Source of the DNA: an uncultured Actinomycetes bacterium
GTDB taxonomy: Bacteria > Actinomycetota > Acidimicrobiia > IMCC26256 > PALSA-610
NCBI GenBank assembly: GCA_963761055.1
Contig: CAVXFO010000007.1
Coordinates: forward strand, 425,075 to 489,074
Length of the DNA: 64,000 nucleotides
Direction of reading: 5' to 3'
Positions 4,467 through 63,764 of the stretch are shown one piece after another. The number at the start of each line of letters is the position of its first letter. Position 1 is the stretch's first letter. A model generated the notes under the pieces. It had not been told where the DNA came from and did not search any database. It saw only the letters and a list, made by a program, of their open reading frames with translations. A program made the position numbers and the translations under genes.

Positions 4467-5364
4467 GAAGAACTGTCTACTCGGAGCGGTACGGTGCGCG
4501 GCAGTGGATGCGATCCTGCGCAAGGCACTCGAACGCAGCCTCGGCGTCGGCATCGTGGCCGGGACGCCGGTGCGCGGGGGCGACGTCGCGGTGTCGTACG
4601 CGGTCGACCTCGACGACGGACGGCGCGTGTTCGCCAAGACGCACACGGCCGCACCGCCCGGCTTCTTCACGACGGAGGCCGCCGGGCTCGAATGGCTGCG
4701 AGCGGCTGCGGCGGTCCCGGTTCCCGAGGTACTCGCCGTCTCCGACGATGTGCCCAACCACCTCGTGCTGGAATGGATCACCGAGGGCCCGCCGGACCGC
4801 GAGACGGATCTGGCTCTCGGTACTGCGCTCGCACGCCTGCACCGGGCCGGCGCGCCCAGCTTCGGCCGCGAAGACCGGCGCACCACCGGGAGTCGCGGCC
4901 TTCCCAACGAGCCGTGCGCGACCTGGTCCGAGTTCTACGCGACCAACCGGCTACTGCCGCTCGCCAAGCTCGCGCGTGAATCCGGTGCCCTCCGCCGACC
5001 GGCGAGCGCCGCGCTCGAGGTACTCGCGGGCCGGCTCGAGAAATTCGGCGGCGCCCCCGAACCGCCGGCCCGACTGCACGGCGATCTCTGGGCCGGCAAC
5101 CGGCTCGTCGACCGCGACGCGAGGAGCTGGTTGATCGACCCGGCCGCGCACGGTGGGCATCGCGAGTTCGACCTCGCCATGATGCGCCTGTTCGGCGGAT
5201 TCGGAGCCGACTGCTTCGCCGCGTACGCCGACGCCTTCCCGCTCGCCGACGGTTGGGAGGGCCGCGTCGCCCTCCACCAGATCGCGCCTCTCGTCGTGCA
5301 CGCGATCAAGTTCGGTGGTGGCTACGTCGGCGCGGCCACGAACGCGATCAACCAGTACCGGTGA
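4465..5364 (+). CDS. fructosamine kinase family protein
   Basis: Motifs HGDLWAGN, IDPAAHGGHREFDLAMMRLFGGF. Start taken at ATG 4465 (MKNCLLG...); a later start is possible. Confidence 0.8.
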   Translation: MKNCLLGAVRCAAVDAILRKALERSLGVGIVAGTPVRGGDVAVSYAVDLDDGRRVFAKTHTAAPPGFFTTEAAGLEWLRAAAAVPVPEVLAVSDDVPNHLVLEWITEGPPDRETDLALGTALARLHRAGAPSFGREDRRTTGSRGLPNEPCATWSEFYATNRLLPLAKLARESGALRRPASAALEVLAGRLEKFGGAPEPPARLHGDLWAGNRLVDRDARSWLIDPAAHGGHREFDLAMMRLFGGFGADCFAAYADAFPLADGWEGRVALHQIAPLVVHAIKFGGGYVGAATNAINQYR

Positions 5365-7164
5365 CGGCACCGGCGCGGAACTCGAGGCCCTCGAAGTTGC
5401 CGGAGTTGCGCCACGTGTCGATGTATTCGAAGTACGCGACCGGGCCGAGCGGGTAGCCGGCCATGCCGAAGCGGGCTCGCGAGTTCAGCGGCTGGCCCTC
5501 GTTGTTGTAGTAGCCCGGGGTGCAGTCGGCATTACCGAAGAACGACAGCGGGCTGCTCTCGAGCAGATCCATCCACGCCTGCTCGGCATCGGCCGTGACC
5601 TCGACCTCGTCGGCACCCGTGTCGAGCGCATGCCGCACGACCGCTGCGATGGTGACGCCCGAATCGGCGAGGTTCGACGTGATGTTCGAGATCAGGTTGG
5701 CGCCCTGCGCGAAGCCGACGATGAAGAGATTCGGGAACCCGTGCACATGGATGCCGTGCATCGACTGCATGCCGTCGTGCCAGCACTTCGAGAGCCGGTA
5801 GCCGTCACGTCCGATGGTGTCGTAACCCGAGCGGCGGTCGTAGTCGGTACCGACCTCGAAGCCGGAGGCGAAGACCAAGCAGTCGAGGTCGTAGTGCACG
5901 CCCCCGACCCGACGCGCCCGTCGCGTCGATCCGTTCGACGCCCTTTCCGTCGGTGTCGACGAGGTGGCAGTTCGGCTCGTTGTACGCCTGCAGGTACTCG
6001 TCGTGGAAGCACGGCCGCTTGCAGAGTTGGCGGTACCACGCCTTCAGCTTCTCGGCGGTCGCGTCGTCGGCGACGACCGCGTTGCAGCGAGCGCGGATCT
6101 CGTCCATCTTCTCGTCGTCGCTCTCGAGGAATGCAAGCTCGGCGACCTCGGGCGTGAACTCCGCGCCGGCCGAGATCTTCTCGACGATCCGGTCGCGGAT
6201 GCGTTGCGAGATGTCGGTCCAGCCGTCCTTGACGAGGTCTTCGTCGGCGAAGCCGCCGGTCTGGAGGGTCGCGAAGTTCAACAGCCATTGCTTCTGCCAG
6301 CCGCACTCCAGCGTCGCGAACCACTCGGGGTCGATCGGGTGGTTGTTACGGACGTCGACCGACGACGGCGTGCGTTGGAACACATACAGCTCGCGCGCGT
6401 CGCGAGCGAGGGGCGGGATGCACTGCACCGCGGTCGCGCCGGTGCCGACGATTCCGACGCGCTTGTCGGCCAGGTTCGTCATCGGCGCGCCGGTCCAATC
6501 GCCGCCGGTGTACTCGTAGTCCCAGCGGCTCGTGTGAAAGGAGTGGCCGGCGAAGGTCTCGATCCCCGGGATGCCGGGCAGCTTGGGCTTGTTGAGCGGA
6601 CCCGTGCCCATGGCGACGAAGCGAGCCCGGAACGCGTCGCCGCGGTCGGTACGGATGATCCAGCGAGCCGCGGCCGCGTCCCAGTCGAGCTCCGTGACTA
6701 CGGTGGAGAACAGCGCCTTGTCGCGGCAAGTCGAACGTGTCGGCGATGCGCTTGCAGTGCCCGTAGATCTCGGGGGCCTTGACGTACTTCGCCGACGGCA
6801 TGTGGCCGGTCTCTTCGAGCAGCGGCAGATAGATCATGGCCGCGGTGTCGCACATCGCACCCGGGTACCGGTTCCAGTACCACGTACCGCCGAAGTCGCC
6901 GCCGACCTCGATGATCCGCACGTCGTCGATCCCCGCCTGCTTCAGGCGCGCGCCGACACACAACCCGGAGAAGCCGCCACCGATCAGCGCGACGGTGACC
7001 TCGTCGAAGAGTGGCTCGCGTTCGGTCCGCTCGGCGTAGGGATCGTCGAGCATCGAGGCGAAGCGGCCCGTCGGTTCGAGGTACTGGTCGTTGCCGTCGT
7101 GCCGCAGCCGCTTGTCGCGTTCCTCGCGGTACTTGACCCGCAGCGCGTCGTGATCCATCGTCAT
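5348..7164 (-). pseudogene. type I Baeyer-Villiger (flavin) monooxygenase, interrupted by two frameshifts as sequenced
   Basis: Three minus-strand ORF pieces join into one complete BVMO. Motifs are [34 protein letters not shown] and [13 protein letters not shown]. The junctions are FDL|[10 protein letters not shown] near 6725 and [12 protein letters not shown]|VHYDLDC near 5905. The second junction lies in a run of five G/C. Confidence 0.8.
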
Positions 7165-7566
7165 CTCGCCTCCGTCACCGCCGCGACCGGCGCACCCCAC
7201 CATGTGGTCGGCGCGCCCAAGATGTCGCGCCGAGGCAGACCATCGGCCGCCCCGAACGCTGTCCACCCGCGCGACCCGCACTGCGTCCGCGTACCGCGGT
7301 GCGAGCTCCGTGAATACCGCGCCACTGCCGTGCGCACGCAGCGCCTCGGCCGACGCGTAGGCCTCGTACAGCGTGCCCGTACCAGACGCGTCGTCGACGT
7401 ACCAGTCGTACACGACGGTGCCGGGCTCGTCGCGACCGACATCCACCATCGCGGCGGCCATCTCGCGGAAGCGCTCCGCGTCGAGGACCTCGAAGCGGAT
7501 CACGAACCGCACCCACTCGCCGTTGCGCACGAGGAGAAGGTAGCCGCGCGCTCGCCGCCGACGCAT
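7161..7566 (-). pseudogene. ABM (antibiotic-biosynthesis-monooxygenase)-like small protein, probably frameshifted; start uncertain (GTG 7512 or ATG 7566)
   Basis: The frame upstream of the BVMO start reads VRFVIRFEVLDAERFREMAAAMVDVGRDEPGTVVYDWYVDDASGTGTLYEAYASAEALRAHGSG, with no stop before the BVMO ATG. A neighbouring frame continues ...AFGAADGLP...AAVTEAR. That frame ends in a TGA overlapping the BVMO ATG (ATGA), which suggests an indel near 7260. Confidence 0.4.
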
Positions 7567-13645: not shown

Positions 13646-14309
13646 ATGCCCAACGCACACGTCACCTCGGCAACCGACACACCGGCTCGGCTGACCGCTC
13701 GCCAGCGCCAGGTGCTCGAGTTCATCGACGCTCAGACCCGTGAGCAGGGCTATCCGCCCAGCGTCCGGGAGATCGGCGAGGCCGTCGGGCTCTCCTCGCC
13801 TTCCACCGTGCACGCGCACCTCGCCGCGCTGCAGGACAAGGGTTACCTCCGCCGCGACCCGAGTAAGCCGCGTGCGATCGAGGTCGCGCTCGGAGCCCAG
13901 CACGGGCACGGCGATCGACCGTCGTCCCGTGCGCAACGTTCCCCTGTTGGGTGACGTCGCCGCCGGTACCGGCGTGCTCGCGGCCGAGAACGTGGAGGAG
14001 GTCATCCCCGTTCCCACCGATCTCTGCGGCGACGGCGACCTGTTCATGCTCCGCGTGCGCGGCGAGTCGATGATCGACGCCGGCATCTTCGACGGTGACT
14101 ACATCGTCGCCCGGTCCCAACCCAATGCCGAGAACGGCGACATCGTCGTGGCGGGCATCCCGGGTGAGGAAGCCACGGTCAAGACGTTCATCCGCAAGCG
14201 CCACAAGGTCATCCTGCGCCCGTCGAACGAAGCGATGGACGACCTCGTCTACGACCCGCTCGACGTGCAGATCTACGGCAAGCTCGTCACGCTGATGCGC
14301 CGGATGTAG
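13646..14309 (+). pseudogene. lexA: LexA repressor, one frameshift as sequenced
   Basis: The N-terminal wHTH ([56 protein letters not shown]) is in the frame of ORF 13550. The S24 peptidase part ([32 protein letters not shown]) is in the frame of ORF 13740. The switch is at about 13900-13935. Confidence 0.9.
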
Positions 14310-19575: not shown

Positions 19576-20592
19576 GAACGGTCGGCCGCGACGGTCGCGG
19601 GGTCGTCCCAGAGTGCCACGACGACATCGGCCAACTGGTCCGGATTTCGCACGGTACCGAGCCAACGGATGCGGGGATCGCGCCGGAACCACACCCGCTG
19701 GCGACGCGCAAACCGACGTGTGCGCCGAACGGCGAGGTCGAACGCGTCCTCGAGGCAGGCGATCTCGCCGTCGAGGTACGCGAGCACCTCCTTGTACCCG
19801 ATCGCCTGGGCCGCGGTCCGGGACAGCCCCCCGCTCGCTTCCGACGATTCGTCGGAAGAATCGTTCTGACACGGCGAAGGGTGACCGCGCGTGGCCAGGG
19901 TGCGGACCTCGGCCTCGAGGCCTGCTTCGCGCATGACGGCGAACCGGGCCGCGATGCGGCGGCCCAACTCGGCACGCGGCAGCCAGATGCCGACCAGGCT
20001 CACGTCGAAGGCCGGGGGCCCGTAGTCGGTGAGCCCGGAACCGAACGACGAGAACGGCCGGCCGGTGATCTCGAGCACCTCGAGCGCGCGGCACGATCCG
20101 GCGGGCGTTGCCCGGCTCGATACGGGAGACCGCGAGCGGATCCGCGAGCGCGAGCCGCTCGTAGGCGAGGGTCAGGCCGTCGGCGGTCGCGGTCTCTCGT
20201 TCGAGGATGGCCCGGACCGCGAGGTCGCGAGGCGGAACCCGGAGCCCGTCGACGACGGCCCGGACGTAGAGGCCGGTCCCTCCGACGAGCAGGGCCCGGC
20301 GCCCCCGCGCTTCGATGTCGGCCACCGCCGCGAGCGCCGCGTCCTGGGTTGCGCGCACGGACCAATCCTCGGACGGGTCGGCAACGTCGACGAGATGATG
20401 GCGAACCGCGGCCTGCTCGGCGGGCGAGGGCTTGGCCGTGCCGACGTCCATCCCTCGGTACACCTGCATCGAATCGAGCGACACGATCTCGACGTCGTCG
20501 AACGCAGTCGCGGCCGCCAGCGCGACCGCCGACTTGCCCGACGCGGTCGGTCCGACGATGGCAAGGTGGCGACTCAGCTCACACCGCCGCAA
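19572..20592 (-). pseudogene. miaA: tRNA dimethylallyltransferase, one frameshift as sequenced; start tentative (TTG 20592)
   Basis: The N-terminal part (IVGPTASGKSAVAL...LLVGGTGLYVRAVVDG...RIEPGNARRIV) is in the frame of ORF 18733..20862. The remainder (LEVLEITGRPFSSF...AIGYKEVLAYL) is in ORF 19572..20078. One extra C sits near 20085 (GTG-C-CGCGCG). Confidence 0.85.
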
Positions 20593-25009: not shown

Positions 25010-26265
25010 TCAGTGCTGCGCCAGCGAGTCGAGACGTTGGCGCAGCAAGTTGAGCAGCGTGATCGTCGAGAACTGGCGGAGCCGTTCGCGGTCGCCGGGC
25101 AGGCGCGTGCTCGACGACTTCCGTCGGCACACCCGGGATCGCGAGACCGAGGAAGACGGTGCCCACCGCGACGCCGTCCTGTTCGGTCGGCCCCGCGACG
25201 CCGGTGGCCGCGATCCCGACATCGGCGCCGAGCACACGCTGCGCGGCTTCGGCCATCTCCCGCGCGGCCTCCTCGCTCACGACCGATTGCGCGGTGACGC
25301 CGAGCAACGACCGTTTGACGTCGGTCGCGTAGCTGCCGATCGTGCCCCGGAACGTGTCGCTCGCACCTTCGACGTTGACGATGCGCGCGCCGATCAGACC
25401 ACCGGTGAGTGACTCCGCCACGCCGAGGGTCCAGCCCCGGCCCCGCAGGCGTTCCAGCACCGCGTACTCCATCGTCTCGTCGTCGACGCCGAACACGAGG
25501 TCGCCGAGGATGAGCCGCAGCTCCTTTTCCTCCAGCTCGACGAGCGCGCGCGCTTCGGGCTCGGTCGCGGCTTTTCCCGTCACCCGGACCACGAGCCCTT
25601 CGATGCCGCGCGCCAGGAACGCGATGGTCGGGATTGCCTCCTTGGGCATCGAGCGCGTCGAGCCGGTGCGCGACCATCTCCGCGAGCGCCGACTCGGATG
25701 TTCCCCACGTCTTCAACGACAGCGACACGATCGCGGCGGCCTCGCCCGATCGCCGCAACAGATCGGGGATCACGTGGTCGGTGACCATCTGCTTCATCTC
25801 GTACGGCACGCCGGGCACCGCGTACACGATCTTGCCGTCGGGCAGCTCACACTTGAGCCCGGGCGCGGTGCCGATCGGGTTCGGGATCGCCTCACCCCCG
25901 TCGGGGATATCGGCCTGGCGCAGGTTGTTCTGCGGCATGTCCCGGACCCGGGCGCGGAACATCTGGGCGATCGTCTCCGCGAGCTCGTCGTGACGCACCA
26001 GCGCGACACCCATGAGCTCTGCGATCGCATCGCGGGTCAGGTCGTCCTGGGTCGGGCCGAGACCGCCGCAGATGAGCACGGCGTCGGACCGCTCGAGCTG
26101 ATCGCGCAGCGCGGCGACGATGCGGGCCTGGTTGTCGCCGATCGCGCGATGCTCGAACGAGTCGATGCCCGACGCCGCGAACTGTTCCCCGATCCACGCA
26201 CTGTTCGTGTCGACGATCTGACCGAGCAACAGCTCGGTGCCGATCGCGAGGACCTCACACCGCAT
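25010..26265 (-). pseudogene. cinA: competence/damage-inducible protein CinA, two frameshifts as sequenced
   Basis: The MoCF-like N-domain (VLAIGTELLLGQIVDTNS...CGGLGPTQDDLT) is in ORF 24625..26265. The middle part (TIAFLARGIEGLVVRV...ESLTGGLIGARI) is in ORF 24972..25649. The end (RLPGDRERLRQFSTITLLNLLRQRL) is in ORF 25010..25237. The junctions are at about 25640 and 25105. Confidence 0.85.
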
Positions 26266-28863: not shown

Positions 28864-30772
28864 TCAACTCGAGGGACGCGAGCGAAACTTCCTCAGCATG
28901 CGTCGAGGGTACGCGAGCGACCGCAACCACAGACCAGAGGAATCGGGCGCCCGGTACGGTTCGTTCCAGGTGACACGGCGGAAGTTTGCAGTGGAACGCT
29001 CGATCACGGGTAGCAACGCATCACCCTCTGCGCCCTGTCGATACAGCGGAAACGTGATCCGATCGACGGTCTCCGGCCAGCGCAGTTCGACGTGAAGTGC
29101 GGATTCACTCTTGTCGGCCGTCACCGCCGGAAGACCGGTAACGCTCGCCGGCACCAGTAGCACAACGAAGTGTGGGTTCACGCTCGTGGCCGCGAAACCG
29201 ACGATCGAATGCTCGGCGAACGGTTGCGCCCGTGCCGAAAACGGGTCGACTCGTGTCTCGACGGCTCCCGGCCTGACTGCGACGATCCGGCCGAGGATGG
29301 CACCGTCAACGCCACGGACCATCGCGGTACCGTCGACGTCACCAACCTCGGCAGAGGGAACGTGCGCAACGAACTCGTACTCGTGCTGCCTACCGTCCTT
29401 GTCGACGTCGTCGTGGACGAGCAGGTAGGGGAATGGGCGACGCACGAAGACCGCCGTGCGCACACAATGACGGACGGGATTGTGACCGTCTTGATCGTAG
29501 GAAGGCTTTGCATCGCCGACGACGGCGACGACCTCGGGCGTCGCTCCGAAGCCGATGATGCTGCCGGAGACGCCGGAGCCCTCCCCGGCAGGCTTCTCGC
29601 CGCGTCCGTCGATGCGCACGAGATTGTGCGCGAGAGAGGACGATGGCGAGCCTTCGCGACGGTCGTTGCCGTCGCCCGAGTCGATCACCATCGGCGCACC
29701 GTTCGCGATGAACGCGAACGAGTTGTTGTCTGCCTGATCATGGAGTCGAGCACGCTCGAGAAATGGACCCGAGTTGAAGGCGAGCACGGTCGCGTCCGTC
29801 GACCACGAGTCGCGAGCTCGACAAGTAGCCGACCTCGGGGTCGAAAATCACGTCATCGAGTTCTGTAAGCGGCGTCTCGATTCCATCACCTGGATGGAAG
29901 AACATCGCTTCGGCGAGCGACGACCAGAGACGATGCGCGCCGTAGGTGCCGAGGCCACTGCGGCCGAGCAGCCGGTCCCACACGGTCGCACAGATACCAG
30001 GTTCGTAGCGGCTGAACATCAGCAGCAGACCCCAGATGGCCCGGTCGGGCTCAGAGAAGGAGTCGTTGAAGTTTTGCAGCCAAGATCCGCCGGGCAAGGT
30101 TTCGTGTGCGTACCAATGCGGCACTCGATGAAGCTTCCGCTCGATACTCGAGTGGGGTGGAACGAGCTCTTCGTCCCGGCCACGCGCACGCAAGAGGCTC
30201 AGGAGCACACCGACATACTTGAAGTCGTAGCCGCAATACGTGATGCCTTCCCACGTGAGGCCGACCGCCGTAACGCCGTGCGCAAGGAAGCCGCTCGTCG
30301 CCTCGAATGCTCGCTCGAGCCACGCCGACGAATCGGGGTGCCGCTCGAGCGCGAGCGCTCCCGCGCCAAGTGCGGCGTAGGCGATGATTGTGTGGTTGAA
30401 GGCCACACACGCCATGTCGCCCCAGCTCGTCGTCGCCTGCTCGTGCGCAACGAATTCGGCGAACTCGGCAGCAATGCCTTCGAGCAGCGGTAGTCGATCG
30501 GCCAGACGCGCTCGGTGGGTCTCGATGCACCCGGCGAGGGCGGTGAGAACCCACGGGGCCGCGAGGTGACGATCGAATCCGGAAGCGTCCCGCCACGCAC
30601 CCCCTGCCATCGGCGCCACGATCTCGACAAGGTGCTCAAGGTGCGGACCATCGGGCACGAGCACGGCGAGCGCACTCAGCTCCTCGATCGTCGCTCGCCA
30701 GCGCACGAACGACTTGCCGCGCAGATGGTACAAGCTGCTCGGAGTGAGCTTCAGATGCGCCGCCCCCGCCAC
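28864..30772 (-). pseudogene. heparinase II/III-like (polysaccharide-lyase-like) protein, one frameshift as sequenced
   Basis: The N-terminal alpha-helical part is ORF 29738..30772. The C-terminal part is ORF 28864..29787 (FNSGPFLERARLHDQADNNSFAFIANGAPMVIDSG). The junction is GYLSS|RDSWSTDATVLAF near 29815. The family call is from memory of the domain pattern. Confidence 0.55.
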
Positions 30773-30898
30773 TTCCAGCCGGAGGCGGATTTCCGCCGCG
30801 GGTTGGACCGGTGTCGGCGAGCGCTCGCGTGACCGCGTCGTCGGGCAGAAACACCGTCTGCGCCCCCTAGCAACCGATGAACAGGCCCGTACGCCGGT

Positions 30899-33145
30899 TC
30901 ACCCAAGCTTCGAACGGACACGCCGCATGACGCCCGCACAGATCTCCGACGGCCTGCGAACTCCATTGAGCGAGAACCTGCGGGACGTCGTGACGGGCGC
31001 AGGCGGGATCGGCGCCGCCTCGGGCGTCAACTGGACCGGTTCGCTGTGGTCCGCCTTCGGCGTGGGCACGATTCGCCGGGGCATCGGATGGGTCGAGGGA
31101 GTTGGCGTGATGTCAGTCCAGTGCTCGCCACCGTCGGTCGAGCGGAAGAAGCCGGAAGGCGCGTAGCCGAAGATCGTCGCGTCGTTGGCGTAGTCGGGTG
31201 AGAACGCGATCGGCGAAGCGACCGCGTTCGGAATGTTCGCGAAGACGACATTGCGGTCGAGTAGGTCCGTTCCGACGGCTACAAACGTTCGACCCCCATC
31301 GGTCGACTTGTAGAGGCTTTTCCCCGCGACGCTGACGAGCACCGTCCCGTCGACCGCAAAATTCGGCGACACCGCAGCGGCCTCGATATTGCCACGCGCA
31401 CCGTACGCGGCCTGCTCGACTCTGCCCCACGATGCGCCGGCGTCACGCGTGACGTAGAGCCCGCGACGGGTGGCGGCGAAAAGGGTCCGGTCGGTGTCGA
31501 ATGCGGGAGAGATCGCGAGGTGGGTGAAGGTGTCTGAGCCTGGACCCGTCGCGGTCCAGGTCGCGGTCCACGTTCGCGCCGGCGTCGGTACTCACGAACA
31601 ACTGGTCGGGTCCCGTGGCGGCAGCCGCGAAAATGGTCTGATCAGTCGCGAACGTCGGCGAGATCGCGAAACTACGGATCTGACCATCGAGCTTCGACAC
31701 GACGACCCACGTCGCGGCGCCGTCTCGAGTCTTCCAGATCTCGCCGAAGCGGTTGCCGAGGAAGATCGAGCCATCGCTGCCGAACGCGGGCGACACGCTC
31801 ATCACGAACTGCTGCAGCGGGATGCCTACCTTGACGACGCGTCGGGCCCAGTGCCGCCCTCGATCAGTCGACTTGAGGAAGGTCGTCCAGTTCGAGCACA
31901 GCAGAGTCTCGTCTGTGTCGTACGCAGGCGAGAATGCGATACCGAAGAGACGTGCGAACCGATCCGGCTTCTGTTGCATGAACCCGCGTTCTTCGAGCCC
32001 CTCGTTGATCGGTATCCAGGTATCGCCGCGATCTTCCGAAAGATAAGCGCCATTGATGTACGAGCTCGCCGCGACCGACGCATCGGCCGCGTAGTTCGGC
32101 GACACCGCAATGCTGATCGCGAGCGTCGCGGGAAGAGTTTCGAGCTCGGTCCATGTGCCGCCACCGTCGTGCGAGCCAAAGAAGCCGTCGAAACCAGCGA
32201 GGAACAATGAACGTGTACCGGGGCTGGAAGCTCCCGGCGCGGCGACAATACGACCGAAGTGCGGCCGTTTCGCATAGCGCTCTTCGTACTTCTGGGTGTT
32301 GCGAGTGAGCCCGACGCTCATGGGCCTCCAGGATTCACCCTTGTCATCGCAGCCGAAGACGCCTCCCGACCATGTCGATATCCACACTCGCGAATCGTCG
32401 CCGTAGTCAGGCGAGAACGCGATCGACGAGATCGACGTGTCGGTCAGCCCGACGTTCTTCACCTTGAAGAACTCGCCACCGTCCACGCTCTTGAAAACGC
32501 CCGACACCGCGCTGCCGACCAGCATGGTCTGGTCGGACGAGAACGCCGGTGAGAGTGCGATCGAGCGGATCGCACCCGCTTCGGCGAGCCGCGTGGTTTT
32601 CCACGTCGCGCCGCTGTCGGAGGAGAGGTGTAACCGGCCGGATTCGTCCCCGACAACGACGATGCCGTCGCGATCGGGCGCGTACGCCGCTGCCGTGATC
32701 GTTGCGTCGGTGCTCGACAATTGCGACGCCACGCGGCGCCGCCGTCGGTCGTGCCGAACAGTCCGTCCGATACCGACACGGCGAGCACGCGATCCGCTGA
32801 GTGCGGCGAGATCGCGACGATCGAGACACGAGCGTCCGCCTTTGTCACTTGCACTTTCGACCACGACAGACCCTCGTCGATCGACTTGTACACGCCGTCG
32901 CCACGTGACACGAAGAACATGATCCGCTTGTCCGTCGCCGACATGTCGAGCGAGAACCGCTGTGCCGTGTCGGTGAAGTACTGCCACATGTTGTTGAGGC
33001 CACGGACGACGTTCTGCCACGAATGACCGCCATCGTTGCTCTTGAGGAACATGTCGCGGCAGAGCGCGAACACGACGCCATCGTTCTCGTAGTCCGGCGA
33101 GACTGCAATGTCGTAGACGTCGTCGTGCGGTGTATGCGGTGCCAC
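30899..33145 (-). pseudogene. Asp-box (BNR) repeat beta-propeller protein with 14 repeats, at least two frameshifts as sequenced
   Basis: Three frames join: 33145 to about 32735, then to about 31545, then to 30899. I counted 14 SxDxGxxW-like motifs (e.g. SNDGGHSW, SSDSGATW, STDGGEHW). Most are preceded by the pattern ISPxFxxDxT. Confidence 0.7.
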
Positions 33146-34071: not shown

Positions 34072-34084
34072 TCGCGTCGTGATC

Positions 34085-43851: not shown

Positions 43852-45235
43852 GTGCGTCAGAATCGCGGGGTGACCGCGCACGACGGCGAAGTCCAGCCTG
43901 GCGAACCTCGGCGTGGCGACGTCCAGCGCGGCGATGTTCAGAGTGATTGGGTCAGGCGGGACGCGCAGGTCGTGTGGCACGGCTTCACCCAGATGTCGAC
44001 CTTCGCCGACAACCACCCGATCATCGTCGACCGGGCCGAGGGCCGGGAGCTGATCGACGTCGACGGTCGGCACTACCTCGACGCGATCTCGTCGCTGTGG
44101 GTCACGACCTTGGGTCATCACGTTCCCGAGCTCGACGACGCGATCCTGCACCAGCTCGCGCTCGGCGCACACTCGACCATGCTCGGCAACGGCAACCGTG
44201 TAGTCGTCGAGCTCTCCGAAGCGTTGGCCCGCGTCGTTCCCGTCGACGACCCACATTTCCTGTATGCCAGCGACGGCGCGTCGGCGGTGGAGCAAGCGCT
44301 CAAGATCGCGTTCCAGTACTGGCACAACCGGGGCGTACGAGGACGCACCACGTTCCTCGCGTTCGGCGGGGCGTACCACGGCGACACGATCGGCGCGCTT
44401 TCCGTCGGCGACGACGGATTCGGCGCCGATGTCTTCGACGCGTTGCGATTCCCGGTCGTACGCGCGCCCGCGTTCGACGACCCGCAGTGTTTCGACACCG
44501 CCGTGCGCTTGATCGCCGAGCACGGCTCCGAGCTCGCGGCCGTCATCGTCGAGCCCTCCGTGCAGGCCGCGGCCGGAATGCAGATGGCGGATCACGGTGG
44601 GCTCGCGCGCCTCGGAGCGGCGTGCCGCGCCCACGACGTGCTCTTGATCTGCGATGAGATCGCGACCGGCTTCGGCCGGACCGGCACCCTCTTCGCGTCG
44701 GAGCAGTGCAGCCTTCGCCCCGACCTGCTCTGTCTGGGCAAGGGCCTCACCGCGGGCTACCTCCCCATGTCGGTGACCGCGGCGAGCGGCCCGGTGTTCG
44801 AAGCTTTCCTCGGTGACGATCTGGGCGGGCAGACGCTCTACCACGGTCATTCCTTCGGCGGGAACGCGTTGGCCGCGGCCGTAGCGCTCCGCCACCTCGA
44901 GCTGATCGAGGCGTGGGATGTGTTGGCCAACGTGCGCGAGCGTTCCGACGAGCTGGCCGGCCTGCTCCACGATCGCGTCGCGCCCAAGCCCACGGTCAAA
45001 GACGTCCGCCTGCGCGGCCTCATGGGCGCGGTCGAGCTCGCGCCGCCCGCCGACGGCCTGCGGTGGGGCCGCCGCGTCGAGCGCGGCCGCGGTCGAGCGC
45101 GGCGTCCTGCTCCGCTCCATCGGCGACAACGTCACGCTCATGCCTCCCCTGACGATCACGTCGGAGGAGCTCCACCGGATCGTGCACGCATTGAGCGAAG
45201 CACTCGACGAGATCGGCGACGAGGCCGGCCGATGA
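43852..45235 (+). pseudogene. bioA: adenosylmethionine-8-amino-7-oxononanoate aminotransferase, one frameshift as sequenced
   Basis: WHGFTQM, HGDTIGALS, ICDEIATGFGRTG and HGHSFGGN are in the frame of ORF 43852. The C-terminus (AAAVERGVLLRSIGDNVTLMPPLTI) is in ORF 44918..45235. The switch is at about 45045-45090. The start (GTG 43852 or 43870) is uncertain. Confidence 0.85.
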
Positions 45236-46373
45236 CCTGGGACGCGTGGGCCGAGGGCGAGAGCAACGCGATCCGCGCCGCGGGTCGGTGGCGCGAACCC
45301 CGTTCCATCGACGCCAAGGGTCCACAGGGGAAGCTCGGCGACGGCACTGACCGACCGGCCGACCGCGCGGTCGTGTCGTTCGCCTCGAACGACTACCTCG
45401 GCCTCACCGCCCATCCGTCGGTGATCGCGGCCGCGCACGAGGCACTCGACCGTTGGGGCGCAGGGGCCGGATCGGCTCGCCTCATTGTCGGCACCCGCCC
45501 GGTTCACGCCGAGCTCGAACACGAGCTTGCAGAGTGGAAGCGGTCGGCGCGGGCCGCGCTCTTCCCCACCGGTTTCGCCACGAACCTCGGCGTCATCAGC
45601 ACGTTCGCCGGGGCCGGGGTGCTCGTCTGCAGCGACGAGCTCAACCACGCGTCGATCATCGACGGGTGCCGCCTCGCGCGCGGCGACGTCGCGATCTACC
45701 GGCACCGAGACCTCGACCACCTCGCGACACTGCTCCGGTCACGCGGTGCACGCCGTGCGCTGGTCGTCACCGACACCGTGTTCTCGATGGACGGCGACGT
45801 GGCCGACGTCGACGCGCTCCTCGACGTGTGCGCCGCGAAGACGCGCTCCTCGTCGTCGACGAGGCTCACGCCGTTCTCGGGCCCAATCTCGACGCGCGTG
45901 ATGGCGTCGAGGTGTTGCGGATCGGGACGTTGTCGAAGACGCTCGGCGCGCTCGGCGGTTTCGTGGCCGGCTCGGCGCGTTCGATCGCGCTGGTCGAGAA
46001 CATCTCGCGTCCCTACATCTTCACGACCGCGCCGACACCCGCCGACACCGCCGCCGCGCTCGCCGCGCTCCGGATCGTGCGCTCCGACGAAGGCACCGCG
46101 CTCGTGCGCCGGCTGCGGCGCCACGTCGACCGGCTCCGACCCGGGCACCCGTCCCCTATCGTCCCGTTCGTCTGCGGCGAAGAGCAGCGCGCGCTCGATG
46201 CCGCCCGCGCCCTCCTCGACGACGGTTACCTCGTTCCCGCGATCCGCCCCCCGACCGTCCCGCCGGGCACCTCGCGGCTGCGGGTGACGGTGTCGGCCGC
46301 GCACAGCGACGCGCAGGTCGACCAGCTGTTGCGTGCGCTGACCCGCGTCCTCGGCTCCGTCCCGGTTCGTTGA
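45232..46373 (+). pseudogene. bioF: 8-amino-7-oxononanoate synthase, one frameshift as sequenced
   Basis: The ATG overlaps the bioA stop (ATGA). The N-terminal part (FASNDYLGL...SDELNHASIIDG...TDTVFSMDGD) is in the ORF 43852 frame. The remainder (DALLVVDEAHAVLGP...GTLSKTLGALGG...IRPPTVP) is in ORF 45453..46373. The junction is near 45840. Confidence 0.85.
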
Positions 46374-48387: not shown

Positions 48388-48418
48388 GGCGTCGTTCCTT
48401 TCATTTCGGGTGAGGAGG

Positions 48419-49498
48419 TCACGTGGACGTCGGTGAGGTCTTCCGGCGGCGGAGACTGCGCAACCGGGAGGTCACGAGGCGCCGTCCCCCACCGACGATG
48501 CCGTCGGGAAGAACGTACATGAGAAGAATCAGCCCGATGCCGTAAATCGCCGGCGACAGGAGATTCTTGACGGAGTCGTTGATGTGCCAGAACAAGATCG
48601 TGTTCGGGAACGACTCGCTGATGTAGCGACCGCTGAACACGACGATGATCCCGCCGGCCAGCGGTCCGAGAACGGTCGCGGTGCCGCCGATGACGACGGC
48701 GACGAGGAACTCGATCGAGAGCTGGAACGTCGCGACCGACGAAGCTGTCGCGAGCCGCTTCACGAGCACGAAGCACGAGCCCGCGACACCCGCGTACAAC
48801 GCGCTCGTCGCGAAGGCGATGACCTTGACCCGGGCAACGTTGATACCGACCGTCTCTGCGGCCGCCTCGTGGTCGCGCACCGCGATCAGCGCCCGGCCGA
48901 AACGGCTGCGCACGATCAGGAACAGCGCGACGATCCCGATCACCGAGATCGCGAGCGTCGCGTAGTACGCCCACTGATCGGGATGGCCGACGAACGTCGG
49001 GGTCCACGACGGCGGGAGCAGCTTCACCCGTGGCAGCTCGCCGACCTGCGAGGTCCCGCACGTTGCACAGAGATCGTGCGGGACGAAACGGTTCGTCAGC
49101 TGCGGGAACAGCACCGCGAGACCGAGTGTGACGAGCGCGAGGTACAGCCCCTTGACCCGCAGGGCCGGAAAGCCGACCAACACCCCGACGCCGAACGACA
49201 GCGCACCCGCGACGAGCAGGGTCGGAGCGAACGGCCAGTCGTGCGACTGCATCAAGATCGCGGTCGTGTACATGCCGAGCCCGAAGAACGCGCCGTGCCC
49301 GATCGAAACCTGACCGTTGTACCCGGTCAGCAGATTGAGGCCCATCGCGGCGACGCCGATGTACAAAGCCTCGGCCCAGAGGTACGTGGTGCCCTGCTCG
49401 TAGAACTGCGGGATGTACCAACCGAACACGTAGACCGCGACGATCAGCACCGCGATCGCGGCGACCACGCGGATGGTCTGCGGGCGGTCGAGCCTCAC
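48419..49498 (-). CDS. livM: branched-chain amino acid ABC transporter permease
   Basis: LNLLTGYNGQVSIGHGAFFGLG motif. The GTG start overlaps the livH stop (GTGA). Confidence 0.85.
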   Translation of the reverse strand: MRLDRPQTIRVVAAIAVLIVAVYVFGWYIPQFYEQGTTYLWAEALYIGVAAMGLNLLTGYNGQVSIGHGAFFGLGMYTTAILMQSHDWPFAPTLLVAGALSFGVGVLVGFPALRVKGLYLALVTLGLAVLFPQLTNRFVPHDLCATCGTSQVGELPRVKLLPPSWTPTFVGHPDQWAYYATLAISVIGIVALFLIVRSRFGRALIAVRDHEAAAETVGINVARVKVIAFATSALYAGVAGSCFVLVKRLATASSVATFQLSIEFLVAVVIGGTATVLGPLAGGIIVVFSGRYISESFPNTILFWHINDSVKNLLSPAIYGIGLILLMYVLPDGIVGGGRRLVTSRLRSLRRRKTSPTST

Positions 49499-50373
49499 AC
49501 GCGCTCCACACGCCGGGAGCCGAAGAGCCCCGATGGCCGGAACAGCAACACGATCAGGATGAGCCCGAACGGGACCACGAGCTCGATGTCGTGCACGACG
49601 TGCAGGTATTGCGTTGTCATCGTGCCCGCGACACCGACGATCAATCCGGCAACGACGGCGCCGAGCGGGCTGTCGAACCCGCCCAACGCGGCGGCCGCGA
49701 ACGAGTACACGAGGATCTCCTGCATGCTCGCGCCCTGCAGACCGACCGGCGCGACGACGAGCGCGCCCGCGAGCGCGCCGATTGCGGCGGCCATCGCCCA
49801 GCCCAACATCAATATCCGCCCGACCGGTACGCCGACGAGTCGGGTCGACTCGGGATTCGAGGCGACGGCCCGGAACGCCAAGCCGATGCGCGTCCGGTTC
49901 AGCAGCAGGTAGAGGATCAGGCACTCGGCCAGGAGCACACCGACGAGCACGAGCGTGTCACTCGAGATCTGCACGTTGCCGGGCAACCAGGTCTTGTTCG
50001 GATAGGCACGCGGCAACAGCTTGATGTCGTTGCCGAACTGCACCTGCGCGATCGAGTTGATCGCGAGGAACATGCCGATGGTGACGATCACCAACACGAG
50101 CGGCGACGCCTGCTCGACCGGGCGGATCAGGATGCGCTCGATCGCCGCGCCACCGACGAACGAGATCACCATCGCCAGCAAGATCGCGGTCCAGACGGGA
50201 ACGCTGCGCTGCGTCAGGAACCAGACGATGTACGTCGAATACAGCGCCATCTCGCCCTGGGCGAAGTTCAAGATCCCCGTAGTGCGGAACACGAGCACGA
50301 GCGCGAGCGCCAACGACGCGTAGACGGCGCCACTGCCGATCCCGTTCATCAGCTGGGTGAGGAAGAGCGACAT
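49495..50373 (-). CDS. livH: branched-chain amino acid ABC transporter permease
   Basis: MSLFLTQLMNGIGSGAVYASLALALVLVFRTTGILNFAQGE. The ATG shares one nt with the upstream stop (TGATG). Confidence 0.85.
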   Translation of the reverse strand: MSLFLTQLMNGIGSGAVYASLALALVLVFRTTGILNFAQGEMALYSTYIVWFLTQRSVPVWTAILLAMVISFVGGAAIERILIRPVEQASPLVLVIVTIGMFLAINSIAQVQFGNDIKLLPRAYPNKTWLPGNVQISSDTLVLVGVLLAECLILYLLLNRTRIGLAFRAVASNPESTRLVGVPVGRILMLGWAMAAAIGALAGALVVAPVGLQGASMQEILVYSFAAAALGGFDSPLGAVVAGLIVGVAGTMTTQYLHVVHDIELVVPFGLILIVLLFRPSGLFGSRRVERV

Positions 50374-51800
50374 CAGATGCCCAAATACGCGCGGCGCACG
50401 TCGTCGTTGCTCGCCAGATCGGCCGCGGAACCCGAGCTCACGATCGTCCCGGTCTCGAGCACGTACCCGCGCACCGCGAGCTTCAACGCGAGTCCCGCGT
50501 TCTGCTCGACGACGAGCATCGAGGTGCCGTCCTCCCGGTTGAGATCGCCGAGCGTGCGGAACAGCTCCTGGGTCACGATCGGCGCCAACCCGAGCGAAGG
50601 CTCGTCGAGCAGCACGAGCTTCGGACGACCCATGAGCGCCCGCGCCACCGCGAGCATCTGCTGCTCGCCCCCGCTCATGCTCCCCGCCTGTTGCGCGCGC
50701 CGATCCTTGAGCCGGGGGAACGTGGTGTACCAACGCTCGATGTCGGAGTCGATGTCGGGTCCGCGACGGCGGTACGCACCGATGCGCAGATTGTCTTCGA
50801 CCGTGAGATCGACGATCGTGCCCCGGCCCTGGGGCACGTGCGCTATGCCCGCGGCCGCGATCTGCTCGGGACGGTGGCCGCCGATCGAACGGCCCTCGAA
50901 GAGGATGCTCCCACCGGTGTCGATCATGCCCGAGATCGCGCGCAGCGTCGTGGTCTTGCCCGCGCCGTTCGCGCCGAGGATGACCACCACTTCGCCGTCG
51001 GCGACCGAGAAGTCGAGACCCTGCAACACCCGTACCGCGCCGTATCCGGCGCGCAGCTCCGAAACCTGGAGCAGCGCGCTCGACGCGGGAGTCCCCAGGT
51101 ATGCCTCGACGACGCGTGGATCGGCGCGTACCTCCGCGGGCGCGCCCTCGGCGATCTTGCTGCCGAAGTCGAGGACCACGACCTTGTCGGAGATCGCCAT
51201 GACCATCGCCATGTGGTGCTCGACGAGCAACACGCTCAACTCGAACTCCGACCGGACGGACCGGATCAGTTCACCGAGCTCGTCGACCTCGGAATGTGTG
51301 AGTCCCGCCGCGGGCTCGTCGAGGAGCAACAACCGGGGTCGGGCCGCGAGCGCACGCGCGATCTCGATGCGTTTGAGCGTCCCGTACGGCAAGCCGACCG
51401 CGGGCCGGGCCGCGAGGTCGTCGAGCGACAGGCGCTGCAGGATCGAATGGGCTTCGGCTCGCCGCTTGGCGTTCACGCGCCCGTGCGTGTAGCCGCCGAT
51501 CAGGACGTTGTCGAGCACCGTCAGGGCCGGAAAGAGCGCGAGGTTCTGGAAGGTGCGGGCAATTCCGACCTTGGCGATCTTGTGCGGCCGCATCCGCAGA
51601 AGGTCGTGGCCGTCGAAGCGGATCTCGCCGCTCGACGGTTGGTAGAGCCGGCTGACGCAGTTGAACAGCGTGGTCTTCCCTGCGCCGTTCGGACCGATGA
51701 GAGCGCAGATCTGTCCGGCCTCGATCGTGAATGTGAGGTCGGCGAGGGCGACGATCCCCCCGAACTCGACCCGAATGTCCTCGACCGACAACAACGCCAC
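50373..51800 (-). CDS. fused LivG-LivF-type ABC ATPase (two nucleotide-binding domains in one ORF)
   Basis: Two Walker A sites (GPNGAGKTT, GANGAGKTT), two signature motifs and two Walker B sites (LLLLDEPAAGL, LVLLDEPSLGL). The domains are joined by ...AYLGTPASSALLQV... with no stop or usable start between them. Confidence 0.8.
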   Translation of the reverse strand: MALLSVEDIRVEFGGIVALADLTFTIEAGQICALIGPNGAGKTTLFNCVSRLYQPSSGEIRFDGHDLLRMRPHKIAKVGIARTFQNLALFPALTVLDNVLIGGYTHGRVNAKRRAEAHSILQRLSLDDLAARPAVGLPYGTLKRIEIARALAARPRLLLLDEPAAGLTHSEVDELGELIRSVRSEFELSVLLVEHHMAMVMAISDKVVVLDFGSKIAEGAPAEVRADPRVVEAYLGTPASSALLQVSELRAGYGAVRVLQGLDFSVADGEVVVILGANGAGKTTTLRAISGMIDTGGSILFEGRSIGGHRPEQIAAAGIAHVPQGRGTIVDLTVEDNLRIGAYRRRGPDIDSDIERWYTTFPRLKDRRAQQAGSMSGGEQQMLAVARALMGRPKLVLLDEPSLGLAPIVTQELFRTLGDLNREDGTSMLVVEQNAGLALKLAVRGYVLETGTIVSSGSAADLASNDDVRRAYLGI

Positions 51801-51872
51801 CGGCGTCCCCCTGGAAACTGCGGAAGCTAGACGGGATATCTACCCGATCCAAGCGCGAATACAAGCGTGCGT

Positions 51873-52652
<780 letters not shown>

Positions 52653-58899: not shown

Positions 58900-58957
58900 C
58901 GACTCCGAATTCCTCACGCCTCGACTGCCAGGGTCGCCGCGCTCGAATACACGCGGT

Positions 58958-59933
58958 TCACAGGGCGTGCATGATCGTCGCGACGACGGCCTCCGCCGTC
59001 TCGTCGCTCGTGAAGCCCGCCGCGAAGCGGTGGCCGCCACCGCCTTGGCGTTCCGCGATCTGACGTACGTCGATCGTGCCGAGCGAGCGCAAGCTCACGC
59101 GCCACGTGAGGTCGGGCCCCTGCTTCAACACGCACGCGACCTGCGCTTCGCGGGTGCGGCGGAGCACGTCGATCAGCCCTTCGACCTCGTCGAAGGTGAC
59201 GTCGTAACGGGTGAGGTCTTCCTGGGTGACCTTCGTCCAGACGAACGCCTTGTCGGGAACGAGTGTCGCAGCCTGGAGCGCCCCTGCAAGGAGCTGCAGG
59301 TACGCGAACCGGTGCTCCTCGAACAGTGTGCGCGAGAGCTCGGGGATCGGTACGTCGAAGCACGACAGCTCCCGCGCGAGCTCGAAGACGGCAGGCGTCG
59401 TCGACTCGTACTGGAACCGGCCCGTGTCGCAGACGAGCGCTGCGTACAGGCACACGGCCGCGTCGCGGGTGAGGGGCAGACCGAGCCGCTCGATCAACCG
59501 GCGCACGAGCACACCACTCGCGGCCGCGTCGGGATCGATCACGTTGATCGTGCCGTACCGCTGGTTCGACACGTGGTGGTCGATCACGACGAGCTCGCGG
59601 GCGGCCTTGGCCGGCCGCTCGAGATCACCGAGGCGCGACAGCGAGCCCGAATCGAAGGTCACCATGACGTCCGGATCGCGCGGGAAGCGGTCGGGGGCCG
59701 TCAACAGGTCGAGTCCGGGCAGCTGGCGGTAGTGCGCCGCGACGACGAACGGCTCCGAGAACGACGCGACGCTCGTGATCCCCGCCGCGCACAACACATG
59801 ATGCAGCGCGAGCATCGAGCCGAGCGCGTCACCGTCGGGACTCACGTGGCAGGCCAGGCTCACTTCACCGGAACCGAGAATCGCCTCGGCCGCCCGGGTG
59901 CAGCGCGCTGTCGACCGGGAGATCGTCGTTCAC
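58958..59933 (-). pseudogene. nrnA: DHH-family phosphoesterase (NrnA-like), probable frameshift close to the 5' end
   Basis: The main frame starts inside the conserved region (..AAEAILGSGEVSLACHVSPDGDALGS, DHH as VIDHHVSN, GGGH). It has no start codon after the rbfA stop. A GTG overlapping the rbfA stop (GTGA) opens a second frame (MNDDLPVDSALH...). That frame would join the main one via an indel near 59885-59905 (CCCGGG run). Confidence 0.7.
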
Positions 59934-60352: not shown

Positions 60353-60356
60353 ACGG

Positions 60357-60948: not shown

Positions 60949-63764
60949 TCAGACCCGGGCGATCTCTCGTTCCTCGAACGTCTCGATCACGTCACCGGCC
61001 TTGAGGTCCTGGTAGTTCTCGAGCCCGATACCGCACTCGAACCCATCGCGGACTTCACGCACGTCGTCCTTGAACCGGCGCAGCGTGGCGATCGATCCCT
61101 TCCAGATGATCGTTCCCTCGCGTAGGAAGCGGACCTTCGAACCACGCGTGATCACGCCACTCGTGACGTAGCAGCCGGCGACCTTGCCGACGCGCGGGAC
61201 CGAGAAGACCTCGCGCACTTCGGCATCCCCGGTGACGACTTCCTCGTACTCGGGCTTGAGCATCCCGACGAGAGCGTTGCGGACGTCGTCGAGCACGCCG
61301 TAGATGACCTCGTAGGTTCGGATCTCGACGCCTTCGCGCTCGGCCACTTCGCGGGCCTTGCGGTCGGGACGCACGTTGAAGCCGATCACAGTCGCGTTCG
61401 ACACGGCCGCGAGGTCGAGGTCGGACGCCGTGATCCCACCGACACCGCGGTGCACGAACGACAGGCGGACCTCGTCGTGCTCGGCGTCGAGCTTCTTCAG
61501 CGCGTCGGTGAGCGCCTCCAGCGAACCGTTGACGTCGGCCTTCACGATGAGGTTCAACGTGGCGACCTCGCCCCGTTGGACCATCGCGAAGATGTCCTCG
61601 AGCCGGGCACCGCCGCCCAGCATCATCGGGTTGCGTTGTGCCGCCACCTTGCGCCGATGCGTGCGCGCCTCGGCAACCGTGCGCGCGACCTTGTCGGAGG
61701 GCGCGACCCGGAGCTCGTCACCCGCGAGCGGCACGTCGTCGAGACCGAGCACTTCCACGGGAACCGACGGACCGGCCTCGCTGACCTGCAGGCCCTGCTC
61801 GTCGAACATCGCGCGGACGCGGCCCCAAGCCGGGCCGGCCACGATCTGGTCGCCGACCCGCAGCGTGCCTTCCTCGACGAGGGCGGTCACGACCGGACCA
61901 CGGCCCTGGTCGAGGTACGACTCGAGCACGTAGGCCTTGGCCGGGCGCTTCGGGTTGGCGACGAGGTCCTCGGCGATCTCGGCGTCGGCCACGAGCAACA
62001 GGGCGTCGAGCAGTTCCTCGACACCTTGCCCCGTCGGCGCAGCGACGTCGAGGACGATCGTGTTCCCGCCCCACTCCTCGGGCACCAACTCCTGCTCGGT
62101 GAGCTGCTGGCGCACGCGGGTCGGGTCGGCGTCTTCCCGGTCGGTCTTCGTCACGGCGACGACGATCGGCACTTCCGCGGCCCGGGCGTGGTTGATCGCC
62201 TCGACAGTCTGCGGCATGACACCATCGTCGGCCGCGACCACGAGGATCGCGATGTCGGTGATCTGCGCGCCGCGCGCGAACGCATTGCGGTGAACGCCTC
62301 GTGACCCGGTGTGTCGATGAACGTGATGCGACGACCGTCGCGCACCACCTGGTACGCCCCGATGTGCTGGGTGATGCCACCGGCTTCACCCGCGACCACG
62401 TTCGCGTGCCGGATGCGGTCGAGCAGCGTCGTCTTTCCGTGGTCGACGTGACCCATGACGGTGATGACCGGCGGGCGCGGCTCGAGCAGCGCGTCGTCGT
62501 CCTCGTCGTCGGCGGTGAGCAGCGCGATCAGCTCGATCTCCTGTTCACTCCCCGGCTCCACGATCAGGATCTGGGCACCGAGCTCCTCGGCGATGAGCTC
62601 GATCATCTCGTCGGGCAGCGACGCCGTCGCCGTCATCATTTCGCCGGCCGCGAAGAGGATCCGGACGAGGTCGGCGGGCGTGCGGTTCAGCTTGGGCGCG
62701 TACTCCTGGATGGTGCTGCCGCGCGAGACGACGATCTCGCCTTCGGGAACGGGCGCATCGGCCGGGGTGAGCCGCTGCGAAGCCGGTTCGAGCTCGGCGC
62801 GGTCGCGACGACGCTTCTTGCGCCGGCGCTGCGGGGGTCCGCCGGGTCGGCCCCGGCCACCGCCGGGACCACCGAAGCCGCCGGGTCCGCCACCAGGGCC
62901 ACCACCGGGACCACCCCGGCCGCGTCCGGGCGCGCCGGTACGGGCGCCACCGGGACCACCGGCTGAACCACCGGGACCGCCGCCGGGCGTGTATCCACCT
63001 CCGCCACCACCGCGCGGACCGCCGAAGCCGCCCCCACCGGGGCCGCCGCGGGCGCCGCCGCCGCCACCGCCGGGACCGGGCCGGGGGCCGCCGGGACGAC
63101 TTCCGAAACTGGTGCGGGGGCCGGGAGGGGGCGGCGGGACCTTCCCGGGCGGCGGCGGGATCGCCTTGCCGCTGCCGGACGTGGGACGCGACGGGGCCGC
63201 GGGCGGTGGGGTCGACGGCGCACGCGCGGCCGGCCGGTCCTCCACCGAAGGCGTGGGTCGGGTGCCGGGTGCGGCCGAGGGAGCTGACGCGGGCGCGGCA
63301 ACGGGCGGCGCTACCGGCGGAGCCGACGCGGGCGCGACCGTCGCCGCGGCCGCGGCCGGGCGTTCCACCGGCGCGGGCGGAGCCGGCATCGCGGGCGCGG
63401 GCGACGAGCGCACCACCCGGTGCGAGGACCGGACCACCGCGGGCTTGGCCTCTTCGACCGCGGCGGACGCGGCGGCCGGCTCGACGGGCCGGCTCGACGG
63501 CGCGATCGTCGTCACCGGGGCGGGCGCGGCGGGCGGGACTTCCGGAACGGGCGGGGCCGGGGCGGGCTCGGGCTCGACGACGGGCGCCTTTTTCAGCCCG
63601 CGTGAGTCGGCCAGGCGGCGGACGCGGTCGGCCGAGGGCTCGTCGATGCTCGACGAGTGGCTCTTGACGCCGATCTTGAGCTCGTTGGAAAGCTCGACCA
63701 CGACGGCGTTGTCAACGCCGAGCTCTCGTGCCAGCTCGTAGACCCGAATCTTCTTCGTCGCCAA
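60949..63764 (-). pseudogene. infB: translation initiation factor IF-2, one frameshift as sequenced
   Basis: The N-terminal part (TTG start, [17 protein letters not shown], Pro/Gly-rich region, [24 protein letters not shown]) is in ORF 62151..63764. The remainder ([24 protein letters not shown]...) is in the frame of ORF 60949..62241. The junction is near 62265-62285. Confidence 0.92.

Follow-up and report, generated by a model that had tools for sequence, protein, structure and literature searches.

The window, the whole 64,000-nt stretch of DNA analysed here, belongs to an uncultured soil Acidimicrobiia bacterium and has a GC content of ~68%. It contains roughly 55-60 genes, and ~12 of them are split by breaks in the reading frame. 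Coordinates are given on the + strand of the window, with the position originally predicted for each break in brackets after it. The original prediction had claimed about 15 reading-frame breaks, and all the 15 that it listed are present in the sequence, within ~30 nt of where it had placed them; each is a single small indel (eleven +1, three +2 and one -1). The list was not complete: at least one more event, a probable -2 at ~51082 that fuses livG to livF, brings the total to 16, of which 14 are insertions, and the event density in the window is ~0.25 per kb.

Three lines of evidence were used for the breaks: Pfam profiles, tblastn with intact orthologues and nucleotide alignments. Pfam profile matches (IPPT, DapB_C, Aminotran_3, Aminotran_1_2, GTP_EFTU, and LexA_DNA_bind together with Peptidase_S24) run on across the frame change, intact orthologues spread seamlessly over two or three frames of the window in tblastn, and the nucleotide alignments reveal a window-private indel per site, which bears out the earlier claim that conserved proteins continue in a neighbouring frame. 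The frame path was followed with a codon-usage Viterbi in place of a stop-to-stop GC3 screen, which was too diluted to locate the breaks. Using every stop-to-stop ORF of the relatives as tblastn query worked as well, with noise from the long off-frame ORFs of 68% GC DNA. The window was also scanned for Rfam families and tRNAs, without a match.

Genes of central functions are among those broken. The lexA gene (13646..14306, + strand) carries +1 G at 13892 (13915), in the linker that joins the DNA-binding domain to the S24 peptidase, and Pfam places LexA_DNA_bind and Peptidase_S24 in different frames. In tblastn the intact 221-aa LexA of relative L081 matched the window in two pieces, frame +2 covering residues 1-88 and frame +3 residues 84-221, the two pieces being 89% and 91% identical to the orthologue. 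In miaA (19581..20577, - strand), the extra C that had been predicted is found as +1 C at 20091 (20085) within the IPPT domain, whose profile is divided into 1-125 and 125-243 over two frames; tblastn and the alignments agree. The infB gene (60952..63762, - strand) has +2 CG at 62277-62278 (62275) in its GTPase domain, where the GTP_EFTU profile is divided into 51-91 and 86-184 across the break. Intact IF2 of six relatives matched window frames -3 and -2 with 92-98% identity in tblastn, and in the alignment with 14 relatives the +2 CG is private to the window.

The nrnA gene (58961..59931, - strand), whose GTG start overlaps the rbfA stop, carries +1 G at 59901 (59895), ~10 codons past that start. 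DHH and DHHA1 lie within one ORF, in which the first start codon comes no earlier than residue 23, and in the alignment the window alone has one more base behind the conserved GTGA start. An ordinary rbfA/nrnA boundary had been considered for this site on the ground that DHH/DHHA1 share one ORF and rbfA is complete, and this reading was overturned by the DNA alignment with its +1 ten codons into nrnA. Two insertions were detected in cinA (25013..26265, - strand), +1 C at 25113 (25105) and +1 C at 25632 (25640), both window-private in alignments against 8 relatives. The CinA of relative L169 is found on the window in three pieces, with frame -2 encoding residues 1-212, frame -3 residues 212-394 and frame -1 residues 385-417. 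Alignment of repaired proteins to orthologues had been proposed as a check, and the pieces do tile the orthologues: repaired CinA showed 96-97% identity to intact 417-aa proteins over 100% of the length (417/417 aa).

Biosynthetic genes showed the same pattern. In bioA (43966..45232, + strand), +1 C at 45078 (45070) is window-private in the alignment against 8 relatives, and the Aminotran_3 profile extends over two frames as 7-354 and 362-403, with tblastn matches also across the frames. The following bioF (45229..46370, + strand) has lost 1 nt at 45833/45834 (45840) in a GCGCGC run; here the Aminotran_1_2 profile is divided into 3-175 and 182-361 over two frames, and tblastn and the alignment agree. 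The dapB gene (51876..52642, - strand) contains +2 GA at 52097-52098 (52090), private to the window against 13 relatives, and both the DapB_C profile (1-51 and 53-120) and tblastn matches cross the break.

Four accessory genes, located in window-specific islands, are also affected. The BVMO gene (flavin monooxygenase; 5351..7164, - strand) is distributed over three frames by +1 C at 5911 (5905) and a +1 at 6727 (6725). Its intact 609-aa homologue P0242 matched with query residues 9-152 in frame -2, 154-424 in frame -3 and 426-598 in frame -1, relatives match it in a single frame, and the DNA alignment to L089-L091 shows the indels. The adjacent ABM-domain gene (7165..7530, - strand) has a probable +1 A at 7260 (7260). 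Pfam ABM matched in one frame (15-74 of 78), and the C-terminal tail (AFGAADGLPRRD..., to its stop) lies in a second frame, its TGA overlapping the BVMO ATG as an ATGA stop/start. In the relative L089 the N-terminal and C-terminal parts are in one frame, in a copy that is internally deleted. This single relative and the ATGA overlap make the break probable, the weakest of the 15 cases.

The heparinase II/III-like gene (28963..30832, - strand) has +1 A at 29818 (29815). An intact 660-aa homologue (L088) matched frame -1 of the window with residues 9-348 and frame -2 with residues 330-637, and the junction residues read GYLS|ARDSW against GYLSARDGW in the homologue. The gene for a BNR/Sortilin-type beta-propeller (31031..33145, - strand) contains +1 A at 31574 (31545) and +2 GC at 32728-32729 (32735), both seen in the DNA alignment to L087; intact homologues of 729-767 aa match frame -1 with residues 1-139, frame -3 with 140-525 and frame -1 again with 530-701. 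The event absent from the original prediction involves livG and livF, which form one 488-aa ORF (50376..51839, - strand). In every relative that has the operon they are separate genes, read in different frames and overlapping by GTGA/ATGA, and the fusion probably reflects a 2-nt deletion at 51081/51082 that took away the ATGA stop/start overlap.

The sequence contexts of the junctions are heterogeneous. Several junctions had been predicted to sit in homopolymer or GC-dinucleotide runs, which holds for infB and bioF, the only breaks within (CG)n runs (short ones, (CG)3-4), but 7 of the 11 +1 insertions join no run and the longest resulting run is only 3. No long homopolymer or tandem tract was present at any indel, and phase-variable simple-sequence slippage is thus not supported.

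No frame break was common to any relative, with the 15 sites and the livG/livF site each aligned to 1-16 relatives. Breaks conserved at identical positions in relatives would have spoken against the original prediction, and none was seen. The closest relatives are ~12-20% diverged at the nucleotide level, and the search for a same-species assembly yielded only relatives with ~85-88% nucleotide identity, also for a protein that is 97% identical. The earlier claim that there is no other decay around the breaks holds: broken genes cover the full orthologue length with identities like those of intact neighbours (77% to 98%), each has one or two indels without secondary lesions, and after repair no in-frame stops were found in the genes tested. 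The breaks ignore essentiality, with infB, dapB, lexA, miaA, bioA and bioF affected alongside the accessory genes.

Comparison with related assemblies, also proposed earlier, separated two groups and was the decisive test. As control, 25 relatives from outside the Microflora Danica (MFD) project were used, most of whose contig names point to short-read assemblers or JGI, and no frame breaks of their own were found in ~73,000 aligned aa (~220 kb coding sequence). The breaks in the window are far in excess of chance, because these relatives carry none in ~220 kb. The comparison set was eight MFD 'contig_N' loci (~40,600 aa, 122 kb), which had ~60 frame breaks at positions unlike those of the window (19 in L009, 15 in L086, 10 in L028). 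Break density among MFD relatives ranged from 0.05 to 1.45 per kb. We identified 20 private non-3n indels in L086 (19 of them +1 insertions) and 20 in L009 (18 of them +1 insertions), all at GC-rich sites outside homopolymers, and none in L081 or L169. Two genes of the window were hit independently in MFD contigs: the miaA of L086 has its own +1 T 17 nt from the +1 C of the window, and the propeller gene of L087 shows T4 -> T5 ~50 nt from the +1 A of the window. Since three or four events in the window are +2 and those of L086 and L009 are almost only +1, the error profiles are similar but not identical.

The frame breaks are very probably errors in the consensus of a metagenome assembled from long reads alone (probability about 0.93). 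The real genes of the organism are almost certainly intact, and the breaks would then be no biological feature. This agrees with the original prediction, which favoured systematic indel errors of the assembly over decaying genes, given the private breaks, the normal conservation, the essential genes affected and the MFD contigs with the same signature; the type of error is different, mostly single-base insertions outside homopolymers and not classic homopolymer slips. We infer that the contig came from an MFD-type long-read assembly and that low coverage caused the errors. The most likely source would be a long-read MAG like those of Microflora Danica, sequenced by Nanopore at low to moderate coverage and probably produced with Flye --meta and one Medaka round without short-read polishing. 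Its consensus would gain spurious indels of 1-2 bases at ~0.25 per kb, most of them insertions of one base at GC-rich sites outside homopolymers, and the indels may split ~12 genes while the genes of the organism stay whole.

Such errors are described for Nanopore-only MAGs (Sereika et al. 2022, PMC9262707; 2025, PMC12313526). The MFD-LR catalogue is Nanopore-only with one Medaka round, and its lower-coverage MAGs were reported with Nanopore-associated errors (PMC12313526); for Nanopore bins below ~40x, short-read polishing is required to avoid fragmented gene calls (PMC9262707). As in the window, small indels fragment gene calls whatever the essentiality, are private to the assembly, vary in density and are absent in non-MFD assemblies. 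The difference is that published work stresses indels in homopolymers and genomes of low GC content, whereas the window (68% GC, its place in the catalogue being presumed), L086 and L009 have mostly single-base insertions outside homopolymers.

This insertion bias and the non-homopolymer contexts are unlike the textbook Nanopore signature, and an artefact of another kind might be considered, such as PacBio CLR, Ion Torrent or 454 sequencing, or a consensus of co-assembled strains. It is improbable, because Nanopore-only MFD contigs show the same insertion-biased, non-homopolymer signature, and strain mixing alone makes no frame-breaking indels in essential genes.

Slightly less probable still is that the frameshifts are real, by massive recent pseudogenisation (reductive decay) or in a non-viable or relic population. 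The indels are truly present in the deposited sequence, and the accessory genes (BVMO, ABM, heparinase-like and propeller) in window-specific islands could plausibly decay. The many frameshifted genes in a short actinobacterial stretch also resemble Mycobacterium leprae. In decay of the M. leprae type, essential genes are spared, stops, deletions and divergence accumulate, and many lesions are shared within the lineage. In the window, by contrast, IF2, DapB, LexA and MiaA are among the broken genes, there are one or two lesions per gene and none is shared, and secondary lesions are absent, one or two small repairs giving full-length proteins 85-98% identical to orthologues. Other long-read contigs are equally densely broken at different sites, and non-MFD assemblies are without breaks. 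Real decay is not credible, because break density tracks the sequencing platform across related contigs. The chance that the indels are real, with IF2, DapB, LexA and others made full-length via pervasive recoding or with the lineage in catastrophic, very recent decay, is very small.

Decoding of the breaks in the living cell, whether by programmed ribosomal frameshifting, by transcriptional slippage or by another recoding system, is the least probable of all: each protein does continue seamlessly in a neighbouring frame, as in prfB (+1) and dnaX (-1), but the orthologues of all relatives are single-frame at these sites, the shifts differ in both sign and size (+1, +2, -1 and -2), and no conserved site, slippery heptamer or homopolymer common to the junctions was found. 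The known programmed shifts, those of prfB and dnaX among them, are conserved between taxa.

If the breaks are consensus errors, pseudogene calls, split or fused genes and pathway gaps from this contig are unreliable, and the same caution would apply to similar long-read-only MAGs. Judged by the deposited sequence, this organism would seem defective in the synthesis of biotin and lysine, in the SOS response and in translation initiation. The value of the result is practical, as a data-quality warning, and not biological. Checks usually target another error profile than this one, in which high-GC DNA gains single bases outside homopolymers, and homopolymer-aware or coding-density filters may therefore miss these errors.

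Nanopore errors of the classic type are homopolymer deletions, unlike the events in the window. The insertions recurrently create GTCGAG, but a methylation-motif-wide miscall, with GTGAGC read as GTCGAGC, was considered as cause and ruled out, as GTGAGC still occurs 0.83 times per kb.

The frame path of the window was traced by codon-usage Viterbi across six frames, and each same-strand frame change was then tested by homology. The original prediction had listed 15 reading-frame breaks, and all 15 were found to be present by Pfam, orthologue mapping and DNA alignment, within ~30 nt of the predicted positions (BVMO, about 6725 and 5905; ABM, 7260; lexA, 13915; miaA, 20085; cinA, 25640 and 25105; heparinase-like gene, 29815; propeller gene, 32735 and 31545; bioA, 45070; bioF, 45840; dapB, 52090; nrnA, 59895; infB, 62275). 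Pfam domains continued across the frame change in miaA (IPPT 1-125, then 125-243), dapB (DapB_C 1-51, then 53-120), bioA (Aminotran_3 7-354, then 362-403), bioF (Aminotran_1_2 3-175, then 182-361) and infB (GTP_EFTU 51-91, then 86-184). The DNA-binding and S24 domains of lexA lay in separate frames, and cinA was in three pieces (MoCF, then KH 25-73 with CinA 2-127, then the remainder). Over two or three window frames, intact orthologues of these seven genes from relatives mapped seamlessly, as did intact 729-767-aa homologues of the propeller gene, which is called in the window as a 473-aa fragment (P0121). A 660-aa intact homologue of the heparinase-like gene and the intact 609-aa BVMO protein P0242 also mapped seamlessly over window frames. 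The nrnA break gave the initial impression of a normal rbfA/nrnA boundary, which was overturned by DNA alignment: the GTGA stop/start overlap is conserved, and a window-private extra base lies ten codons later. The ABM break is the least secure of the 15. Its conserved C-terminal tail, ending in a TGA that overlaps the BVMO ATG, is out of frame with the ABM domain; domain and tail share one frame in L089, a JGI contig of a relative, but that copy is internally deleted (186-353, upstream of BVMO, without ~58 internal residues, in frame, versus the window copy). Where relatives gave coverage (the stretches 12.2-22, 22-29 and 36-39.6 kb, and 42.5 kb), the other same-strand frame changes were ordinary gene boundaries; those in 1-5.3 and 7.5-9.4 kb had no relative.

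In alignments of orthologous loci, none of the indels was common to any relative. One or two small repairs restore each gene to the full length of its orthologue, and comparison with orthologues revealed no other decay in the broken genes beyond the small indels. Repaired CinA showed 96-97% identity over 417/417 aa with intact proteins, the IF2 pieces 92-98% and the LexA pieces 89% and 91%; unbroken neighbour genes ranged from 77% to 98%.

Insertions made up 14 of 16 events (eleven +1, three +2, one -1 and a probable -2 at livG/F). The prediction had placed several junctions in homopolymer or GC-dinucleotide runs. This was correct only in part: infB and bioF are the only breaks in (CG)n runs, seven of the eleven +1 insertions joined no homopolymer, and the longest run produced was 3. 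Five window-private indels (45078, 25113, 29818, 51081 and 58921-58922) created the hexamer GTCGAG, and four of them GTCGAGC. This recurrence, tested post hoc, hints at a k-mer bias of basecaller or polisher. A motif-wide miscall of GTGAGC was ruled out by the lack of any depletion: the motif occurs at 0.83 per kb.

As an assembly-type control, single-frame pieces of the window were used as queries, and internal frame changes were counted in every fetched relative. The 25 loci from outside the Microflora Danica (MFD) catalogue, mostly with short-read-assembler (k141_, k99_, NODE_, scaffold_) or JGI contig names, had no breaks of their own in ~73,000 aligned residues; the only flags fell at the livG-livF fusion of the window itself. 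In contrast, the eight loci from MFD MAGs, on 0.3-4 Mb contigs with Flye-style "contig_N" names, had ~60 breaks in ~40,600 residues (L009, 19; L086, 15; L028, 10). It shows that the breaks follow assembly type. Multiple alignments gave 20 private non-3n indels in 7.6 kb of L086 (19 of them +1 insertions) and 20 in L009 (18 of them +1), all in GC-rich non-homopolymer contexts, and none in the related loci L081 and L169. The error signature of the window matches that of L086 and L009, and miaA and the propeller gene were also independently struck in sibling contigs; +2 events are commoner in the window than in L086 or L009. Gene calls of L086 were similarly fragmented or falsely fused (miaB-miaA joined, dapF in pieces, lexA truncated), and those of L081 and L169 were clean. 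These public MAG contigs, L086 (225-8272) and L009 (whole locus), carry 1.1-1.5 frame breaks per kb, far worse than the window, with effects including false fusions miaB-miaA and dapD-dapE and broken IF2, PNPase and RbfA.

Only Nanopore reads went into the MFD long-read catalogue, which was assembled with Flye --meta --nano-hq and given a single round of Medaka; its authors noted Nanopore-associated errors in lower-coverage MAGs (PMC12313526). The same group reported that Nanopore R10.4 bins below ~40x need short-read polishing, otherwise gene calls are fragmented by indels (PMC9262707). The window's own contig probably comes from an assembly of this kind, at low to moderate coverage.

The reading of the frame breaks as assembly indel error and not a biological feature, as originally proposed, is thus supported by private indels, absence of other decay, breaks tracking assembly type and a matching signature. 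An artefact of another kind, whether due to a different platform or to a strain-mixture consensus, is conceivable but unlikely, and the verdict is unaffected by this. Genuine gene decay fails, because essential genes are among those broken, the lesions are neither shared nor accumulated, and the breaks are linked to assembly type. Programmed recoding also fails, since the orthologues are unshifted and the sites have no common motif or shift size.

Assembly error probably also accounts for a 16th event, not in the original prediction. At 50376-51839, livG and livF, two ABC ATPase genes, form one 488-aa ORF, and the junction reads TCGA versus an ATGA or GTGA stop/start overlap in all relatives with the operon. 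One 2-nt deletion at 51081/51082 would account for the single ORF, but the fusion could be real. The liv-type operon (46974-51873) is absent in the closest relatives (L001-L009) and found in more distant ones (L011-L017, L021, L028).

Outside coding sequence, window-private indels were an insertion of 5 nt where miaB meets miaA (20564-20584), a +2 GA between nrnA and its upstream gene (58921-58922), and +13 and -2 in the rpsO-pnp intergenic region (56610 and 56648). These indels may be errors or may reflect real variation. In the propeller gene, an in-frame 12-nt tandem duplication at 31550-31573 (ACGTGGACCGCG ACCTGGACCGCG, giving TWTA TWTA) lies beside the +1 A and is missing from L087, a sibling long-read contig. 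L087 has its own propeller frameshift (10001-11812, T4 to T5), a 603-aa gene call and an rve-family transposase gene downstream.

GC content is 65-74% along the entire window, and its gene set is the usual actinobacterial core region: nrdJ-type RNR, nrdR, lexA, dapE-like, dapD, hflX, dapF, miaA, miaB, recA, cinA, pgsA, rimO, ftsK, RNase J, bioA/F/D, liv ABC transporter, dapB, pnp, rpsO, truB/ribF, nrnA, rbfA and infB. A scan of the whole 64 kb (1-64000) gave no tRNA genes or Rfam families above threshold. All matches of the window PNPase were to soil and peat MAGs of uncultured Acidimicrobiia/Actinomycetota; the top ones reached 92-94% identity in amino acids and ~80-84% in nucleotides, and gene order was conserved. 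The nearest relatives compared were ~12-20% divergent in nucleotides even with proteins 97% identical, and none was of the same species. Two blocks have no counterpart in the syntenic L081 and L169: 5359-9430 (BVMO, ABM and an SDR-like gene) and 28748-35836 (heparinase-like, propeller and methyltransferase genes), the latter kin to a glycan or sulfotransferase cluster of the related loci L087 and L088. These accessory blocks hold six of the 15 breaks.
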